This document shows, one piece after another, positions 7,617 to 35,893 of a stretch of DNA of 38,389 nt; the stretch's first letter is position 1; every line of letters starts with the position of its first letter. Source of the stretch: Enterobacteria phage SfI; the sequence record JX509734; one strand, 5' to 3'. Under the pieces are notes generated by a model. It worked only from the letters and a program-made list of their open reading frames with translations, did no database searches and was not told the DNA's origin. Made by a program: the position numbers and the translations under genes.

Positions 7617-7787
7617 ATGTTTGTCAAACCTGTTAAAGGGCGGTCAGTTCCTGACCCTGCCCGCGGCGACCTTTTGCCCGCCGAGGGGCGAAATGTTGAT
7701 GAGAACAACTACTGGCTGCGCCGTGAAGCAGCGGGTGATATCCGGCGCGTGAATAAAAAGGTGAATACCGATGACGATAAGCTTTAA
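7617..7787 (+). CDS. Small protein preceding the tail sheath gene (DUF2635-like)
   Basis: 56-aa ORF (MFVKPVKGRSVPDPARGDLLPAEG...) with GAGGA RBS; overlaps the sheath start; not in the ORF track because it is under 60 aa. Confidence 0.45.
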   Translation: MFVKPVKGRSVPDPARGDLLPAEGRNVDENNYWLRREAAGDIRRVNKKVNTDDDKL

Positions 7788-9267
7788 CACCATTCCGTCG
7801 AATACGCTGGTTCCGTTGTTTTATGCGGAAATGGATAACCAGGCGGCGAATACTGCACAGGACAGCGGAGCATCGCTGCTGATTGGTCATGCCAATAACG
7901 GTGCAGAGATTGTTGCCAACAGTCTGGTGCTGATGCCATCGGCAGACTATGCACGCCAGATTTGTGGTGCGGGAAGTCAGCTGGCGCGTATGGTCGAGGC
8001 TTATCGCCAGACCGACCCGTTTGGTGAACTGTATGTGATTGCCGTTCCTGAATCCACGGGCGCGGCGGCAACAGTTACGCTGACGGTGACCGGCGCGGCA
8101 ACCGAAACCGGCACGGTGAATGTTTATGTGGGACGTACCCGCGTGCAGGCACCGGTGACCAACGGCGATAACGTCGCGACGATTGCCAGCAGTATCCAGG
8201 ATGCCATCAATGCCGTTCCGACCCTGCCGTTTACGGCTTCATCTTCGGCAGGCGTGGTCACACTGACCGCGCGTCATAAGGGGCTTTGCGGGAATGAAAT
8301 TCCTGTCAGCCTCAATTACTACGGCTTTGGTGGGGGCGAAGTGCTGCCAGCGGGCGTACAGATTGCCGTGGCGACGGGTACCGCCGGAACGGGCGCTCCT
8401 GTTCTCACCGGCGCGGTGGCTGCAATGGCGGATGAGCCGTTTGATTATATCGGCCTGCCGTTCAACGACACGGCCTCCGTTAACACGCTGGTGACCGAGA
8501 TGAACGATACCAGCGGTCGCTGGAGCTATGCGCGTCAGCTGTATGGTCATGTGTACACGGCAAAGATCGGCACGCTGTCAGAACTGGTGACCGCAGGTGA
8601 CCAGTTTAACCAGCAGCACATTACCCTGGCGGGATACGAAAAAGAGACCCAGACGCCTGCCGACGAGCTGGCGGCAAGCCGTACCGCCCGCGCAGCGGTG
8701 TTTATTCGCAACGATCCGGCACGTCCCACGCAGACCGGTGAGCTGGTGGGTATGCTGCCTGCGCCGAAGGGGAAACGGTTCACGATGACCGAACAACAGA
8801 CCCTGCTGTCTCATGGCGTGGCAACGGCGTATGTCGAAAGCGGGGTGCTGCGCATTCAGCGTGATGTCACCACGTACAGGAAAAACGCTTACGGTGTTGC
8901 GGATAACAGCTACCTCGACAGCGAGACGCTGCATACCAGCGCGTATGTACTGCGCAAACTGAAATCCGTCATTACCAGTAAGTACGGGCGTCACAAGCTT
9001 GCCAGCGACGGTACCCGCTTTGGTCCCGGTCAGGCGATTGTCACCCCGGCGGTGATCAAAGGGGAACTGCTGGCAACCTACCGTCAGCTTGAGCGTGCGG
9101 GGATCGTGGAAAACTACGAACTTTTTAAGCAGTACCTGGTTGTGGAGCGTGATGCCAGCGATCCGAACCGCCTGAACACGCTGTTCCCGCCTGACTATGT
9201 TAACCAGTTGCGTGTCTTTGCCGTGGTTAACCAGTTCCGTCTTCAGTATTCAGAGGAGTCCGCATAA
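7771..9267 (+). CDS. Contractile tail sheath protein (Mu gpL-like)
   Basis: 498-aa ORF followed immediately by a tube-sized ORF; sheath-like size and composition. Confidence 0.82.
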   Translation: MTISFNTIPSNTLVPLFYAEMDNQAANTAQDSGASLLIGHANNGAEIVANSLVLMPSADYARQICGAGSQLARMVEAYRQTDPFGELYVIAVPESTGAAATVTLTVTGAATETGTVNVYVGRTRVQAPVTNGDNVATIASSIQDAINAVPTLPFTASSSAGVVTLTARHKGLCGNEIPVSLNYYGFGGGEVLPAGVQIAVATGTAGTGAPVLTGAVAAMADEPFDYIGLPFNDTASVNTLVTEMNDTSGRWSYARQLYGHVYTAKIGTLSELVTAGDQFNQQHITLAGYEKETQTPADELAASRTARAAVFIRNDPARPTQTGELVGMLPAPKGKRFTMTEQQTLLSHGVATAYVESGVLRIQRDVTTYRKNAYGVADNSYLDSETLHTSAYVLRKLKSVITSKYGRHKLASDGTRFGPGQAIVTPAVIKGELLATYRQLERAGIVENYELFKQYLVVERDASDPNRLNTLFPPDYVNQLRVFAVVNQFRLQYSEESA

Positions 9268-16930: not shown

Positions 16931-17581
16931 ATGCATCGTATAGACACGAAAACCGCGCAGAAGGATAAGTTCGGCGCGGGTAAGAACGGTTTTACCCGTG
17001 GTAACCCCCAGACTGGCACGCCTGCCACCGATCTGGATGATGACTACTTTGACATGTTGCAGGAGGAGCTTTGCAGCGTGGTGGAGGCATCCGGTGCCAG
17101 CCTGGAGAAGGGGCGGCACGATCAGTTGCTTACCGCACTTCGCGCGCTGCTGTTAAGCCGCAAGAATCCGTTTGGCGATATCAAATCGGATGGCACGGTG
17201 AAAACGGCTCTCGAAAACCTTGGTTTGGGAGAAGCAGCTAAAAGGAATGTAGGTACAGGGGCGAATCAGATACCTGATATGAGCCTGTTCGCGTCAAGTA
17301 ATACCGCAACGGCTGCTGCGCAAAAATTTCCGTCTGGATTAATTTTACAGTGCGGTCAGTTGAATGGCTCCCCTAATGTATCTTCAACATACGGGATGAG
17401 GTTCCCGATGACATTCTCAAGAGTCCTTGCTGTCACAGTTACATTGAACGTTACTGGCGCGTCAGGGCAGCCGACTGTATCGGCGACAAATGTCCATAAC
17501 ACTGGATTTGATATTACAGTGTCGCCCGGTTCAGGATATGGTTCATCTGCTGATGCGTATTACATTGCAATGGGATATTAA
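16931..17581 (+). CDS. Tail fibre protein (short; AT-rich receptor-binding C-terminus)
   Basis: 216-aa ORF with N-terminus [17 protein letters not shown]; the C-terminal half drops markedly in GC. Confidence 0.72.
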
Positions 17582-17585
17582 CGAA

Positions 17586-17993
17586 ATGTCATATTTTTAT
17601 TCTGCATCGACAAACGGATTTTATTCGACTGAATTTCACGGCACCAATATTCCTGATGATGCAGTGGAAATCTCGGAATCAGAGTGGAAAACACTGATTA
17701 ATTCGCAGAGTGTAACAAAAATGATTACCTGTGGTGAGAATGGTCACCCTGTCATTGTTGACCGTCCTTCTCCAACACCAGAACAATTAGCCTTAATAAA
17801 TAATGAAAAGAAATCTGCACTGATAGCAGAGGCAACGAATGTAATAGCGCCGCTTCAGGATGCGGTTGATTTAGATATGGCAACAGATGATGAAACGAAA
17901 CTGTTACTGGCATGGAAAAAATATCGCGCACTATTGATGCGTGTTGATATAAAAAATACAGAGTGGCCGAAAAAACCAGAGAGCAATCTATAA
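17586..17993 (+). CDS. Tail fibre assembly chaperone (Tfa-like)
   Basis: Track ORF 17490..17993; functional start taken as the ATG at 17586 (MSYFYSASTNGFYS...), 5 nt after the fibre stop. Confidence 0.68.
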   Translation: MSYFYSASTNGFYSTEFHGTNIPDDAVEISESEWKTLINSQSVTKMITCGENGHPVIVDRPSPTPEQLALINNEKKSALIAEATNVIAPLQDAVDLDMATDDETKLLLAWKKYRALLMRVDIKNTEWPKKPESNL

Positions 17994-18163
17994 GAGAAAA
18001 TTCGTTATTGGATGAAAAGCGAGACATCTAATTATAACAGCATATGGTTTTTCTAATGATAGCTCCTTCAACTTTATAGTATCTCATATACTCTAGAATA
18101 TAGCTCTAAATGAGGGTTTGTTGTATACGGCAACCACTCCATTTTTATTCCTGATAGGGATAT

Positions 18164-18226: not shown

Positions 18227-19747
18227 CTATAGGTTAAGTTTTTTGTTAAATACTAATATTACTCTTCCTTCAAAGTTCAAAACTTCGTCAGGCTTACCTA
18301 ATTGTTCTTGAATACCTGCAAGGCAGGATGTCATTTCTTTACATCGTTCAGGTTCGTTAGCTATGGAAACTGCTATAAACTGTCGCTCAGGAGCAGAATT
18401 GAACGCCTCCTTGCTATGCCAAGAAGCCAGTGTCTGTTGTCTCACGCCAGTAAAGTTAATTTTCCCCGAATCAGCATTAAAGAAAACAGGAGTTATCTGT
18501 ATGTCCCCACCAGATAACCAATTTACAGTCATTGACAAATCCCAAAAAGAGCCGTACCCATAATGGAGATTATTTTTTTTTAAAAAATCAATGTATGATT
18601 TAACAATCTTCTCCTGATCGTGTAATGGTGAAGCATTATTTGTGTAAGATTTAATTGAACTGATCGAAAATAAAAATGCGATTAGATAAAATAATATCTT
18701 TGCTTTTGTTGATGTACCGATACAGCACAATATCAGTGCGAAACAGGTAACATTCATAAAGAAACGCATGCTAATATAATCAGGGGATTTATAGCTCAGT
18801 ATGAATGATGAGACAATACCTGCGATAGATAATAATGAAAATAACACAATATAAATACGGTATGTGTTTTTTTTATTGTCCGATAAAACAAACCACGCAG
18901 ATGTAATAATGGCAATGAACCAAATGACAAATGAGGCGTAAGATGTTGCGTTATTGTCGACAACTAATAAATTAAGACTTTTTCCTATTAACAGAATGCA
19001 CCATTTTGCATTTAAAATCATATCATTGAGTGATACAATTTCAAATTGGTGGGGAGGTATGTTAAGTAGATTTTGCAATACATTGGAAAGAGAGATTAAA
19101 CATGCAAATAGTATTAATGCAGTATGCTTAAATAATTTTTTATCCCATACAGAGAATAAAAAGTAAGATATTAATAGTGGAATAAAAAATGCAGCTGTAA
19201 ACCACGGATCGGATACGCTGGAAAATAATGCTGTCAAACTTAAGAGGAGAGTGATAAATATATTTTTATACTGTATGTTGAAAACAGATATAAGCAAGCA
19301 TAAAAAGCCGAAAGCGTTTGTTGAATTATGAGAAAAAGGATGTGATACAAAACCATAAGTGTATGAAAAATATGGTATTAGAGATAGAAGTATAATAGAA
19401 AATAAAGCAGGGGTAAACCCGAATGCCTTACGTAGCGTTAACATCGCTGCTATTACTATAGCAATAGAGAAAACTGCAGTTGATAATCTTAATGCTACTA
19501 AGCCATCATCACCTAACAGCATATAAAATAAAAAGTTAATTGGGTAAACGGTGAAATACCAATTATCCACGGTTGGTTTCCAGTCGTGGATTGATGATAT
19601 ACCATTCTCTAAAATATGCCTCCATACAATTGGGCTGTTAGCAACATCCGGTTCAACTGGAAAGTATCTGGTAGTCAACCAAGTTATTAGGAGTGCTGAT
19701 AAAGCCAATAATATTTTTAATGCTGATTGTTTAATACATATGCTCAT
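18227..19747 (-). CDS. GtrC-family serotype-specific O-antigen glucosyltransferase (polytopic membrane protein)
   Basis: 506-aa very hydrophobic, AT-rich ORF directly downstream of gtrB in the same operon; gtrC genes are the variable, serotype-defining member of gtr cassettes. Confidence 0.72.
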   Translation of the reverse strand: MSICIKQSALKILLALSALLITWLTTRYFPVEPDVANSPIVWRHILENGISSIHDWKPTVDNWYFTVYPINFLFYMLLGDDGLVALRLSTAVFSIAIVIAAMLTLRKAFGFTPALFSIILLSLIPYFSYTYGFVSHPFSHNSTNAFGFLCLLISVFNIQYKNIFITLLLSLTALFSSVSDPWFTAAFFIPLLISYFLFSVWDKKLFKHTALILFACLISLSNVLQNLLNIPPHQFEIVSLNDMILNAKWCILLIGKSLNLLVVDNNATSYASFVIWFIAIITSAWFVLSDNKKNTYRIYIVLFSLLSIAGIVSSFILSYKSPDYISMRFFMNVTCFALILCCIGTSTKAKILFYLIAFLFSISSIKSYTNNASPLHDQEKIVKSYIDFLKKNNLHYGYGSFWDLSMTVNWLSGGDIQITPVFFNADSGKINFTGVRQQTLASWHSKEAFNSAPERQFIAVSIANEPERCKEMTSCLAGIQEQLGKPDEVLNFEGRVILVFNKKLNL

Positions 19748-19749
19748 GG

Positions 19750-20670
19750 TTATTTTCTACCTTTCTTCAAAATATACTTAGGTCTTGATTTTGTTTCTAA
19801 GTAAATTCTACCTATATATTCACCGAGAACACCAATCCCGATCAGTTGCACTCCACCCAAGAAAAGTATTGATACAAGCAGGGAGGGATACCCGCGTACT
19901 GGGTTACCAAAGACAAGGGTGTCTATAATCATCCATGCACCATATAAAAATGAAATGCTTGCAACAAACAAGCCTATATAAGTCCATACGCGAAGAGGAA
20001 AGGTTGAAAAACTTGTGATACCTTCCAGTGCCAGATTCCATAATTTCCAGCCATTAAATTTTGAGATGCCAGCAACACGCTCTGCGCGTACATATTCAAC
20101 GACATCCGTCTGACCACCCACCCAGCTCAGTATGCCTTTCATGAAAAGATTGCGCTCAGGCAACAGTTTAATGTTCTCCACAACCTCACGAGACATGAGT
20201 CGAAAATCTCCGACATTTTCCTCGATCTTTGGGGTGCTTATTTTGTTGTGTAATTTATAGAACCACTCAGCTGTCTTACGTTTCAGTCGTCCATCAGTTG
20301 AGCGGTCTGAACGTTTAGCAAGCACCATGTCAGCACCTGCCTGCCACTTTTCAATAAGATGAGGGATAACCTCAATTGGGTCTTGCAGGTCGACATCAAT
20401 AGGAATTACAGCATCGCCGCTTGCATGGTCTAACCCTGCAAATAAGGCTGGTTCTTTACCAAAGTTGCGTGTAAATGACAGCGGAACAACTAGCGGGTCT
20501 GAAACAGCCAGCGCGTTAATAATTGACTCTGTGGCATCTTTACTTCCGTCATTTATGAATACAATTTCTACTTCATATGGCTTCAACTCTTGGAATTCAC
20601 GTACCGTTTTATAGAAAACAGGTATCGCTTCTTCTTCATTGAAGACAGGAACGACAAGAGATATTTTCAT
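19750..20670 (-). CDS. gtrB: Bactoprenol glucosyltransferase GtrB (GT2 family)
   Basis: 306-aa ORF ([17 protein letters not shown]...) with C-terminal TM segments; coupled to gtrA upstream. Confidence 0.88.
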
Positions 20671-21029
20671 TTCGCATCCCTAAAGACAATGAACTTTGAA
20701 TAGACGAAACCGCACACCAGACTGATGGCGGAGAAGGTGATAAGAGTGACTATTGGAGGAAGTGAGCATTTATCAGCTGCCCAACCAACAATCACACTCA
20801 ATATTCCCATAAATCCCACGTATAACATGTAGCGCATCGCTGTAGTCGATGCTTTGAATGTGAATCTTGCATTCGCGAAGAAGCTAAAGCTCACAGCCAC
20901 TACGAAACCTGTGAAGTTTGCCAGAGCCTGACTGGTATGTGCGGCATAGATACATACACCAAAAACCACCCAGTGTATAAGTGTGTTCAGCACACCTATA
21001 GATGTGTACTTTACAAATAACTTTAACAT
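20667..21029 (-). CDS. gtrA: GtrA flippase for undecaprenyl-phosphate glucose
   Basis: 120-aa four-TM protein; first gene of the minus-strand gtr operon. Confidence 0.85.
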
Positions 21030-23518: not shown

Positions 23519-24271
23519 TCACACTTCGAATGCCAGTTGAGGGGTAAAGACGTCCCGTTCAGCGTTGTAATTAAGTGAACTGGCACTGTTGAATGATTCA
23601 ATGCGTTCCACAAGAACTTGCGTACGGGTTTCTTTACTTGCGGGAGCATATGGCGAACCTACCCAGGATTTGTCGATGCCTATATTTCTTGCGACGTTCG
23701 TGCTGTCTGCAGACGAAAGCGGTACATGAGTAAAAATGTCTTTATTTAACATCCGTAACCCATGAATCTTGGTGATTGGGTAGCCGTACTGATCTACAAC
23801 ATGACGTATAAGATCGCGTAGTTTAGCCCGACACGCTCTCGGTCGTTTTGCATCGTATTCCCCCATCGAGCCGATGCAGACGCGGGGAAACTCATGGCAC
23901 AGACGAATAAATCGCTCATCTGGTTCGTTCATGTGCCACACCGGAGCACCAATAAATTTACCGTGAGGCCATGCCGCAATCAGGGCGTCATTCTCTTCAC
24001 TGGTTCCGCCGATAACATCCGGGATAACCGCGAATGAGAAACGAGGGTGATTGCCCCAGCGTTCAACAAATCTGTAATATTCATTCCAGTCTACGGCCTT
24101 GTTTTTTGTCCAGAATGTGAATGCACCATTATCAAGAGCAAATGATTGGGTGACTTCGGAAGCCAGATCAATCTGAGCTGGATTAGCAAAACTGATGAAT
24201 GCGTGTCTGCCTTTCCAGGCTTTCAACGCACAGGTATCGGGAGTTATTGGACCACCGTGAAAATGAATCAT
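23519..24271 (-). CDS. TGT-fold protein, candidate DpdA-like DNA-guanine transglycosylase (7-deazaguanine DNA modification)
   Basis: 250-aa ORF with GGGAGAG RBS. By eye it carries LDNGAF (compare DSGGFQ of tRNA-guanine transglycosylase), IGSMG (compare LMGVG) and SADSTNVARNIG (compare DCVMPTRNARNG) in the right order, and lacks the C-terminal zinc site, as phage DpdA proteins do. The gene is solid; the functional call is inference. Confidence 0.45.
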   Translation of the reverse strand: MIHFHGGPITPDTCALKAWKGRHAFISFANPAQIDLASEVTQSFALDNGAFTFWTKNKAVDWNEYYRFVERWGNHPRFSFAVIPDVIGGTSEENDALIAAWPHGKFIGAPVWHMNEPDERFIRLCHEFPRVCIGSMGEYDAKRPRACRAKLRDLIRHVVDQYGYPITKIHGLRMLNKDIFTHVPLSSADSTNVARNIGIDKSWVGSPYAPASKETRTQVLVERIESFNSASSLNYNAERDVFTPQLAFEV

Positions 24272-33151: not shown

Positions 33152-33183
33152 AGGCCTGCTGGTAATCGCAGGCCTTTTTATTT
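33152..33183 (+). terminator. Rho-independent terminator (tR2-like)
   Basis: AGGCCTGC / GCAGGCCT 8-bp stem with 8-nt loop followed by TTTTTATTT, between ren and ninB. Confidence 0.6.
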
Positions 33184-33199
33184 GGGGGAGAGGGAAGTC

Positions 33200-33640
33200 A
33201 TGAAAAAACTAACCTTTGAAATTCGATCTCCAGCACATCAGCAAAACGCTATTCACGCAGTACAGCAAATTCTTCCAGACCCAACCAAACCAATCGTAGT
33301 AACCATTCAGGAACGCAACCGCAGCTTAGACCAAAACCGAAAGCTTTGGGCTTGCCTTGGTGACGTCTCTCGTCAGGTTGAATGGCATGGTCGCTGGCTG
33401 GATGCAGAAAGCTGGAAGTGTGTGTTTACCGCAGCATTAAAGCAGCAGGACGTTGTTCCTAACCTTGCCGGGAATGGCTTTGTGGTAATAGGCCAGTCAA
33501 CCAGCAGGATGCGTGTAAGCGAATTTGCGGAGCTATTAGAGCTTATACAGGCATTCGGTACAGAGCGTGGCGTTAAGTGGTCAGACGAAGCGCGACTAGC
33601 TCTCGAATGGAAAGCGCGATGGGGAGATCGGGCTGCATGA
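33200..33640 (+). CDS. ninB: NinB (Orf family recombination mediator)
   Basis: Track ORF 33182..33640; start taken at MKKLTFEIRSPAHQQNAIHAVQQILPDPTKPIVVTIQERNRSLDQNRKLWA... Confidence 0.8.
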   Translation: MKKLTFEIRSPAHQQNAIHAVQQILPDPTKPIVVTIQERNRSLDQNRKLWACLGDVSRQVEWHGRWLDAESWKCVFTAALKQQDVVPNLAGNGFVVIGQSTSRMRVSEFAELLELIQAFGTERGVKWSDEARLALEWKARWGDRAA

Positions 33641-34164
33641 CTATCAAATCAAATACGCCAGCACACGACAAGGACTGCTGGCAAACGCCGCTTTGGCTTT
33701 TTGATGCACTGGATATTGAGTTTGGATTCTGGCTGGATTCGGCAGCGAGCGACAAAAATGCTCTGTGCGCTCACTGGTTAACTGAGGCCGACGACGCGCT
33801 AAATTCTGAGTGGATAAGCCACGGTGCAATCTGGAATAACCCACCGTACAGCAATATCAGGCCGTGGGTGGAAAAAGCCGCTGAGCAGTGCATACAACAG
33901 CGACAGACGGTAGTGATGCTTGTGCCAGAGGATATGTCTGTCGGATGGTTCAGCAAGGCTCTGGAGAGTATTGACGAAGTTCGCATCATCACTGATGGAC
34001 GGATTAATTTTATCGAACCATCGACAGGGCTGGAGAAGAAGGGAAACAGCAAAGGTTCCATGCTGCTGATTTGGCGACCGTTCATCAATCCTCGACGGAT
34101 GTTTACTACCGTATCCAAAGCGGCATTGATGGCGATCGGGCAGGGCGTCAGGAGGGCAGCATGA
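33637..34164 (+). CDS. Phage Dam-like DNA N6-adenine methyltransferase (NPPY motif)
   Basis: Track ORF 33577..34164; ATG at 33637 is ATGA-coupled to the ninB stop; the 175-aa product has the WNNPPYS motif typical of N6-adenine methyltransferases; occupies the position of lambda ninC. Confidence 0.68.
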
Positions 34165-34343
34165 GACGACAGCGACGAAGTATCACCGACATCATCTGCG
34201 AAAACTGCAAATACCTTCCAACGAAGCGCTCCAGAAATAAACGCAAGCCAATCCCAAAAGAATCTGACGTAAAAACCTTCAACTACACGGCTCACCTGTG
34301 GGATATCCGGTGGCTTAGAGAACGTGCGAGGAAAACAAGGTGA
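34161..34343 (+). CDS. ninE: NinE-like protein
   Basis: 60-aa frame ([60 protein letters not shown]) inside track ORF 34071..34343; coupled to the methyltransferase stop. Confidence 0.6.
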
Positions 34344-34510: not shown

Positions 34511-35114
34511 ACCAGCGCGAAGACGATGTAAAAACGATGAATGTCGGGAATGGTTTCACCCTGCATTCGCCAATCAGTGGTGGTGCTCTCCAGAGTGTGG
34601 AACCAAGATAGCACTCGAACGACGAAGCAAAGAACGCGAAAAAGCGGAAAAGGCAGCAGAGAAGAAACGACGACGAGAGGAGCAGAAACAGAAAGATAAA
34701 CTTAAGATTCGAAAACTCGCCTTAAAGCCCCGCAGTTACTGGATTAAACAAGCCCAACAAGCCGTAAACGCCTTCATCAGAGAAAGAGACCGCGACTTAC
34801 CATGTATCTCGTGCGGAACGCTCACGTCTGCTCAGTGGGATGCCGGGCATTACCGGACAACTGCTGCGGCGCCTCAACTCCGATTTGATGAACGCAATAT
34901 TCACAAGCAATGCGTGGTGTGCAACCAGCACAAAAGCGGAAATCTCGTTCCGTATCGCGTCGAACTGATTAGCCGCATCGGGCAGGAAGCAGTAGACGAA
35001 ATCGAATCAAACCATAACCGCCATCGCTGGACTGTCGAAGAGTGCAGGGCCATCAAGGCGGAGTATCAGCAGAAACTCAAAGACCTGCGAAACAGCAGAA
35101 GTGAGGCCGCATGA
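34503..35114 (+). CDS. ninG: NinG / Rap recombination endonuclease
   Basis: 203-aa ORF with N-terminal Cys cluster (CKNDECREW...CSPEC) and basic region, as in lambda NinG. Confidence 0.78.
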
Positions 35115-35157
35115 CGTTCTCAGTAAAAACCATTCCAGATCACAAGGGAGAAGGCGC

Positions 35158-35646
35158 ATGGGCATAAGAGAACTAAACCTCACCAAAGAACAGCACGAGT
35201 GGCTGAATGGCTGGCTTGAACTGTGGGGCGCATGGGTTTATTCAGGTCGTCTGGAAAAGCGCATGAGCAGCGTAATAGCTAAGTTCATGGAGAGCGTAGA
35301 GCCGGGAAGAGTTATGACAAGGCCAATGTGTAATGATGATGATGGAATGTTGATTTCTCAGGTCGTCGATTCCGTCATGTACATTGACAAGAAAGCCTTT
35401 GGTATCCTCCTCAGCTACTACGCCCACGGCTCTTCCAAGCACGCCATTGCATCTTACTATCATCGCGTCGCAAGACCTCGCAAGATGTTATGCCGGGGCG
35501 GCGGGCGCATTCAAAAACCATCGCTCGCAACCTGTCGACGGGAAGTTGACGAAATCCTCAATGCCTCGTTGTTTATGATTTACCCGGTTCTGGATAGTGC
35601 GTTTAAAAACCGGAAACGTGTAGAGAAAATTAAACATGTAGCATAG
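35158..35646 (+). CDS. Q: Late-gene antiterminator Q (non-lambda, phage 21/82-like type)
   Basis: Track ORF 35101..35646; GGGAGAAGG RBS favours the ATG at 35158; position after the nin genes and before the late promoter, tRNAs and lysis genes; the family call is from context. Confidence 0.55.
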   Translation: MGIRELNLTKEQHEWLNGWLELWGAWVYSGRLEKRMSSVIAKFMESVEPGRVMTRPMCNDDDGMLISQVVDSVMYIDKKAFGILLSYYAHGSSKHAIASYYHRVARPRKMLCRGGGRIQKPSLATCRREVDEILNASLFMIYPVLDSAFKNRKRVEKIKHVA

Positions 35647-35737: not shown

Positions 35738-35812
35738 GGGTCAGTCGTATAAAGGTCATTACGGAAGGCTGTTAACCTTCTTATCGTGGTTCGAGTCCAC
35801 GCTGTCCCGCCA
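35738..35812 (+). tRNA. tRNA, anticodon GTT by hand fold (Asn-like); slightly imperfect stems
   Basis: 75 nt with CCA end; perfect anticodon stem GAAGG/CCTTC with loop CTGTTAA, T-arm CGTGG-TTCGAGT-CCACG, one T-T mismatch in the acceptor stem and a 3-bp D-stem. Confidence 0.5.
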
Positions 35813-35817
35813 AATAT

Positions 35818-35893
35818 GCTGGTTTAGCTCCAATGGTAGAGCGGTCGCCTTGTAAGCGAATGGGTAGCGGTTCAAGTCCGTTAACCAGCACCA
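35818..35893 (+). tRNA. tRNA-Thr (anticodon TGT) by hand fold
   Basis: 76 nt; perfect 7-bp acceptor stem (GCTGGTT/AACCAGC), D-stem GCTC/GAGC, anticodon loop CTTGTAA, T-loop TTCAAGT, 3-prime ACCA. Confidence 0.72.

Follow-up and report, generated by a model that had tools for sequence, protein, structure and literature searches.

A solitary phage N6-adenine methyltransferase gene, probably directed at GATC, between ninB and ninE of Enterobacteria phage SfI

The DNA analysed here, referred to as the window, is the whole stretch of 38,389 nucleotides of Enterobacteria phage SfI (JX509734), a lambdoid temperate phage that encodes a large terminase and the sheath of a contractile tail (7771-9267). 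In its nin region, between ninB and ninE, lies a gene, here called dam, which is predicted to encode a DNA methyltransferase. The locus comprises the following features.

33152-33185, (+): tR2-type intrinsic terminator in the gap between ren and ninB, recognised by the stem-loop AGGCCTGC...GCAGGCCT followed by the T-run TTTTATTT
33200-33640, (+): ninB (orf), recombination mediator gene (Pfam NinB PF05772, 1.1e-54)
33621-33626, (+): Shine-Dalgarno-like GGGGAG within the 3' end of ninB, 10 nt 5' of the dam ATG (direct sequence reading)
33637-34164, (+): dam, predicted 175-aa orphan phage N6-adenine DNA methyltransferase (profiles, identity to VT2-Sakai orf32, AF2 fold)
33736-33738, (+): codon of Asp34, which lies where the first core strand ends, in an L-D-x-A-A segment (invariant in both alignments described below)
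33838-33849, (+): codons of the catalytic motif IV NPPY, residues 68-71 (invariant in the 8- and the 42-sequence alignment)
34161-34343, (+): ninE (Pfam NinE PF05322, 3.2e-43)

Read directly from the sequence, dam starts with ATG at 33637 and ends with TGA at 34162-34164, which amounts to 528 nt or 175 codons and a stop; the segment WNNPPYS occupies residues 66-72 (nt 33832-33852). At the upstream junction (GCATGACT, 33635-33642) the dam ATG (33637-33639) and the ninB TGA (33638-33640) share the four bases ATGA, and at the downstream junction (GCATGAGA, 34159-34166) the dam stop and the ninE start share ATGA in the same manner (34161-34164). The initial annotation had described an intact 175-aa reading frame carrying WNNPPYS and coupled to ninB by an ATGA; coordinates, motif and the overlap at 33637-33640 are all borne out by the sequence. 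In phage 434 a ribosome-binding site is annotated at the position equivalent to GGGGAG. One GATC, at 33626, overlaps this Shine-Dalgarno element. With family E-values of 1e-64 to 1e-87, the reading frame lies far beyond chance.

Comparison with lambda by BLAST delimits the exchanged segment. A block of 95.6% identity begins at lambda 40244 and ends together with the ninB stop codon (window 33640, lambda 41084), and homology resumes, at 97.4%, in the third codon of ninE (window 34168, lambda 42097). Between these points, a 527-bp segment containing dam stands in for lambda 41085-42096, i.e. 1012 bp with ninC and most of ninD, which confirms the earlier proposal that dam sits where lambda would have ninC. 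As judged from this alignment, the mosaic joints lie at gene borders. Downstream of dam the gene order is NinE, then NinF and NinG. No restriction endonuclease is found beside dam, whose neighbours are NinB, NinE and then NinF and NinG, and phage 434 shows the same arrangement; dam is an orphan (solitary) methyltransferase. Homology to lambda stops at 35139, just past ninG, and the window there (35101-35646, (+)) encodes a 181-aa PF06530 (Phage_antitermQ) antiterminator that replaces lambda ninH, ninI and Q. Genes for tRNA-Asn (GTT; 35738-35812, (+)) and tRNA-Thr (TGT; 35818-35893, (+)) lie between Q and the holin, the site at which Stx phages carry tRNAs and toxin genes (cf. VT2-Sakai), and are followed by the lysis genes.

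The tR2-type stem-loop (33152-33175) with its T-run lies inside the stretch shared with lambda at 95.6% identity, phage 434 has an annotated terminator in the corresponding position, and the window encodes a lambda-type N. In lambda, transcription from pR reaches the genes past tR2 only once N has brought about antitermination. Since tR2 precedes dam, the gene is expected, by analogy with lambda biology, to be expressed as a delayed-early gene. In the Stx phage Phi24B, a 528-nt dam CDS (17559-18086), which we equated with the window gene solely by its identical length and name, is expressed in lysogen cultures (PMC3342100).

With regard to the rest of the phage, the reading frames of O, P and ren lie in the 95.6% lambda-identical block and agree with the annotation of phage 434, whereas integrase, exo, bet, rexAB and cI are presumed to be present from the sizes and order of their reading frames. 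The initial annotation had also assigned dam, together with Ral, Gam and a candidate DpdA, to an "unusually rich anti-restriction set". This is overstated, as Ral (PF11058, 4.4e-44) and Gam (PF06064, 6e-63) belong to the standard gene set of lambda, dam occurs in about 29% of complete E. coli genomes, and annotations of phages 434, HK140, mEp043 and Stx phages have long shown it in this place. The DpdA-like reading frame (250 aa; 23519-24271, (-)), located in the exo-xis region, matches phrog_887 'queuine tRNA-ribosyltransferase' (4e-99) and has no match in Pfam. It shares 99.6% identity with Escherichia phage PhiR5_1 and 67.6% with proteins of the Salmonella phages BTP1 and SPN3UB; present in 106 phage records, it is rarer than dam. 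Its identity as DpdA is plausible from these sequence matches. Beside the presumed integrase reading frame lies a serotype-conversion cassette (18227-21029, (-)) for O-antigen modification with gtrA (GtrA PF04138, 1.9e-14) and gtrB (glycosyltransferase family 2, 7.4e-31); its 506-aa reading frame, for which Pfam gives no match, presumably encodes the serotype-specific GtrC-type transferase.

That the dam product belongs to a phage family of Dam-type N6-adenine methyltransferases, as first suggested from its motif, is strongly supported by profile searches. The protein matches Pfam PF05869 "DNA N-6-adenine-methyltransferase (Dam)" with 2.1e-64 and 216.7 bits (cutoff 28.1; profile positions 1-167 of 169), the NCBIfam equivalog TIGR01712 "phage N-6-adenine-methyltransferase" with 4.5e-79 and 263.7 bits (cutoff 97.05; positions 1-165 of 165) and PHROG phrog_111 "DNA methyltransferase" with 3.3e-87. 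It thus belongs, over its full length, to the small HP1/T1/VT2 phage Dam family PF05869/TIGR01712. PF05869 is its sole Pfam match; to PF02086 (MethyltransfD12), the family of E. coli, T4 and P1 Dam, the Pfam search gave no match at E<=0.01. The protein is Dam-like in its predicted activity, not in lineage, and stands outside the E. coli/T4 Dam family. With those alpha-class enzymes it has in common the predicted chemistry (methyl transfer from SAM to adenine N6), the presumed GATC target and the orphan status, but they belong to a different family, are about 100 residues longer and possess a dedicated DNA-recognition domain. Membership in the MT-A70 family, i.e. a relation to enzymes of the M.EcoGV / M.EcoPA8orf6770P type, was considered as well and rejected: only PF05869 is matched in Pfam, and the gene lies in the nin region rather than near int.

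To describe conservation within the family we used two alignments. The first (A1) contains eight sequences, namely the window protein, VT2 orf32, phiARM81mr p11, HP1 orf13, T1 ST20 and one protein each from Vibrio, Staphylococcus and Gordonia phages. Invariant in A1 are T17, D34, L55, W59, N68-P69-P70-Y71, V78, A81, L95, W104, R122 and F125, and the invariance of T17, D34, NPPY, R122 and F125 holds across distant phage homologues at 32-49% identity (phiARM81mr p11 49%, HP1 orf13 34%, T1 ST20 32%). The second (A2) comprises 42 enterobacterial homologues of 58-97% identity and has 44 invariant columns. The window protein contains the family elements W-x-T-P in the N-terminal helix, the L-D-x-A-A strand and G-R-x-x-F; Asp34 is a candidate for the SAM-binding acidic residue. 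The database furthermore holds Dam-NinE fusions of 233-235 aa with both PF05869 and PF05322 (entries P0001, which represents 41 member sequences, and P0022), and in other entries Dam is fused with NinB, RusA or other neighbours. The form of these entries suggests frameshifts or miscalls at ATGA junctions.

HP1 Dam (orf13 of Haemophilus phage HP1) and T1 Dam (ST20) are founding members of the PF05869/TIGR01712 family. Both differ from the window gene in context, HP1 dam being located in a P2-like early operon and T1 being a lytic phage of the Drexlerviridae, and T1 Dam has an N-terminal extension of about 45 aa and an insertion relative to the window protein. T1 Dam has reportedly been described as a GATC enzyme by Auer and Schweiger in 1984 and by Schneider-Scherzer in 1990. 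Like the window protein, which it resembles in size, HP1 Dam lacks a separate target-recognition domain. It has been reported as a GATC (Dam-type) enzyme (PMC7556043).

A search of PDB sequences with the dam protein alone or with the eight-sequence profile yielded no relative (best E 0.23 and 1.3, respectively). We therefore used an AF2 model together with Foldseek. The model (m755333630c9f, 42-sequence alignment; pLDDT 83.3, pTM 0.84) predicts one alpha/beta domain of six strands with flanking helices and no separate target-recognition domain, in which NPPY follows directly after the strand formed by residues 64-68, while the loop 46-51 is poorly ordered. Against the PDB, Foldseek matches are weak to moderate, and the top ones are nearly all N6-adenine methyltransferases. 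First among them is PCIF1/CAPAM (TMq 0.58, E 4.5e-4); behind it rank TrmM, KsgA, E. coli Dam, CamA, METTL4 and Type ISP/IIL enzymes. The structures of E. coli Dam (2ore, 4rtl, 2g1p) align only partially (TMq 0.31-0.35, E 0.06-0.24; E 0.06-0.3 for the classical Dam enzymes), and those of METTL3/14 and METTL4 reach E 0.06-0.35 at TMq <0.31. The BFVD search recovered phage "DNA N-6-adenine-methyltransferase" models (TM up to 0.87) and, among its other matches, giant-virus PCIF1-like proteins.

With PCIF1/CAPAM (PDB 6iry, 6irv; TMq 0.57-0.59, prob 1.00) the model has in common an NPPF/NPPY-type motif that follows strand 4, a helix at the N-terminus and degenerate surroundings of strand 3, features that are typical of the M.EcoKI/M.TaqI-like group, in which PCIF1 is included (PMC4738411). 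Because the model of the window protein likewise shows an N-terminal helix with a conserved residue and is degenerate in the stretch from strand 1 to strand 4, it would fit into this group. PCIF1/CAPAM differs in being a eukaryotic RNA enzyme with additional helical and WW domains, and it aligns with only 13-16% identity at an rmsd >5 A. The resemblance is one of fold only, not of family membership.

An indication of the target of the enzyme comes from the Shiga-toxin phage VT2-Sakai. Its orf32 encodes a protein of 175 aa that is identical to the window protein in 172 of 175 positions, the three differences being the conservative substitutions I60V, I112V and N151S. It matches PF05869 with 6.4e-65, and its annotation reads "similar to DNA methylase"; the neighbouring genes are the nin146 (ninB) and nin60 (ninE) homologues. 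From prophage VT2-Sa the orphan enzyme M.EcoVT2Dam is known, for which a passage in PMC6602927, citing Radlinska & Bujnicki 2001, gives the target 5'-GATC-3'; VT-2, HP1 and phiARM81mr also appear in a list of phages that have Dam-like enzymes (PMC7556043). Because orf32 is the sole methylase-like reading frame annotated in VT2-Sakai, it is probably the cloned M.EcoVT2Dam. Orf4 (299 aa) was tried as the source of M.EcoVT2Dam and rejected, as it is a DUF551 protein and not a methyltransferase. We thus infer, on good grounds, that orf32 is M.EcoVT2Dam with GATC as target, which relates dam to a CHARACTERISED enzyme. By its 98% identity to the presumed M.EcoVT2Dam, for which the GATC claim is second-hand, the window protein is most probably specific for GATC. 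Specificities measured under overexpression may mislead, a caveat that has been raised for another Stx-phage methyltransferase (PMC10810198). The window gene and orf32 agree in length, PF05869 membership, position between ninB and ninE, and ATGA coupling, and dam genes in identical context are found in phages 434, HK140, mEp043, Phi24B and many Stx1/Stx2 phages. The phage backbone is unlike that of VT2-Sakai, since the window phage has lambda immunity and a contractile tail and carries no stx genes in the window.

Taken together, we consider it probable, at roughly 0.9, that dam encodes an orphan single-domain SAM-dependent N6-adenine methyltransferase, probably acting on GATC, which is produced as a delayed-early protein and completes the GATC methylation of the phage. 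According to this reading, the pR transcript would extend past tR2 after N antitermination, so that Dam would appear as a delayed-early product during phage DNA replication, and ninB, dam and ninE would be translationally coupled through their ATGA overlaps. The target adenine would be flipped into the NPPY pocket, where a methyl group would be transferred from SAM to N6. Some 130 GATC sites in the phage genome would thereby become fully methylated, topping up a limiting host Dam. Fully methylated progeny DNA would be protected from MboI/DpnII-type enzymes that are blocked by GATC m6A, and GATC methylation of the phage would become independent of the dam status of the host; side effects on GATC-dependent regulation or on lysogeny are conceivable.

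The E. coli host itself methylates GATC, so that the selective benefit of a phage dam in this host is hypothetical, and GATC-specific methylation-sensitive restriction is, to our knowledge, not common in E. coli. On the other hand, host Dam leaves lambda and P22 virion DNA undermethylated (PMC8022706), and the endogenous enzyme is rate-limiting on high-copy DNA (bioRxiv 10.1101/2020.06.22.160242). Completing the GATC methylation of progeny DNA is the most economical function that can be proposed for dam. The window contains 130 GATC sites, with an observed/expected ratio of 0.70 under a Markov model and of 0.87 under base composition; this mild depletion says little for or against the function of dam. 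Among other words, CTAG is strongly avoided in the window (6 observed; ratio 0.30, Markov), and GGCC has a ratio of 0.63 (Markov).

One alternative, which we regard as unlikely, is that the protein is an active adenine methyltransferase whose native target is something other than plain GATC DNA, be it relaxed or non-specific adenine methylation, a different motif, RNA, or activity that depends on a partner protein. The structural comparison speaks for it insofar as the best solved fold match is the RNA enzyme PCIF1/CAPAM, followed by the tRNA and rRNA enzymes TrmM and KsgA, and the protein comprises just 175 aa with no separate target-recognition domain. Moreover, a "Dam-like" label can mask an RNA methyltransferase, as with M.EcoPA8orf6770P, which acts on 16S rRNA when bound to PNB-2 (PMC10810198). 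M.EcoGV and M.EcoPA8orf6770P, too, are 'Dam homologues' carried on lambdoid prophages of E. coli, and this type and the nin-region dam can share one prophage (PMC6602927). However, the rRNA enzyme is encoded by another gene, gp5 beside int, which is MT-A70-like and similar to M.EcoGV; it thus differs in gene, locus and family and needs its PNB-2 partner (PMC10810198). We therefore rejected an identity of dam with this recently described Stx-prophage rRNA methyltransferase. The likeness to PCIF1 is modest as well (14% identity, rmsd >5 A) and fits common membership in an ancient M.EcoKI/M.TaqI-like group (PMC4738411). Against another target stand the 98% identity to VT2-Sakai orf32, probably the cloned GATC enzyme M.EcoVT2Dam, and the citation of HP1 Dam, VT-2 Dam and phiARM81mr as Dam-type enzymes (PMC7556043).

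We also considered a role of the nin-region Dam beyond bulk GATC protection, which could involve RNA, single-stranded or replicating DNA, or a signal or decoy for methylation-sensing defences; its closest solved fold is that of an RNA cap adenosine methyltransferase. This is a speculative and improbable extension. Precedents for methylation sensing exist for other Dam enzymes, namely retron msDNA and m6-dAMP sensors. Two retrons were considered as possible cases with a PF05869 trigger and rejected: Ec86 is triggered by a phage Dcm, and the enzymes tried on Retron-Sen2 were the Dam proteins of E. coli, Salmonella and P1, none of them from PF05869. They provide context only.

It is very unlikely that dam is a decaying or neutral passenger, i.e. 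a mosaic filler of the nin region devoid of methyltransferase activity. Genes of the nin region are dispensable in the laboratory, as illustrated by the lambda nin5 deletion, Dam is already supplied by the host, and the databases contain truncated or fused dam variants (fragments of 105-152 aa, a 233-aa Dam-NinE fusion). Yet the reading frame in the window is intact and full-length relative to both curated profiles, every family-invariant residue is present, only the three conservative substitutions separate the protein from VT2-Sakai orf32, the coupling signals are intact at both ends of the gene, and 1566 E. coli genomes retain dam at 95-99% identity.

Finally, the possibility that the true coding feature is the 174-aa antisense reading frame 33771-34295 or a 195-aa version of dam starting from GTG at 33577, both of which occur in the mechanical list of open reading frames, can practically be dismissed and both were rejected: the antisense frame has no family match (the best being a sub-threshold match to Tat, E 0.024), and the GTG form would add 20 N-terminal residues inside ninB that are missing from all homologues and profiles, whereas the annotated homologues (phage 434, VT2-Sakai orf32) use the ATG and the family profiles start at residues 2-4, in agreement with a start at 33637.

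The preferred reading, a probable GATC methyltransferase that completes the methylation of the phage, concerns a gene that is widespread. At the DNA level, HK140, 434, mEp043 and many Stx-converting phages share the 1.3-kb ninB-dam-ninE block at 97-98% identity; matches occur in 424 phage records, 59 of which cover at least 80% of the query. The gene itself is present at >=95% identity in 1566 of 5426 complete E. coli genomes (~29%; 95-99% identity among these), where it carries the PGAP label "phage N-6-adenine-methyltransferase". At the protein level, 1898 phage records contain a member of the Dam family, among them those of T1-like, Vibrio, Klebsiella, Lactococcus, Staphylococcus and Gordonia phages.

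In conclusion, dam is an already known, routinely annotated and ordinary gene of lambdoid phages. As it is common in phages and E. coli genomes, and as work of 2001 had cloned a near-identical copy, presumably M.EcoVT2Dam, and attributed GATC specificity to it, the discovery value is small. What is useful is the documentation of a mosaic nin region, in which dam takes the place of lambda ninC and ninD exactly at gene borders.
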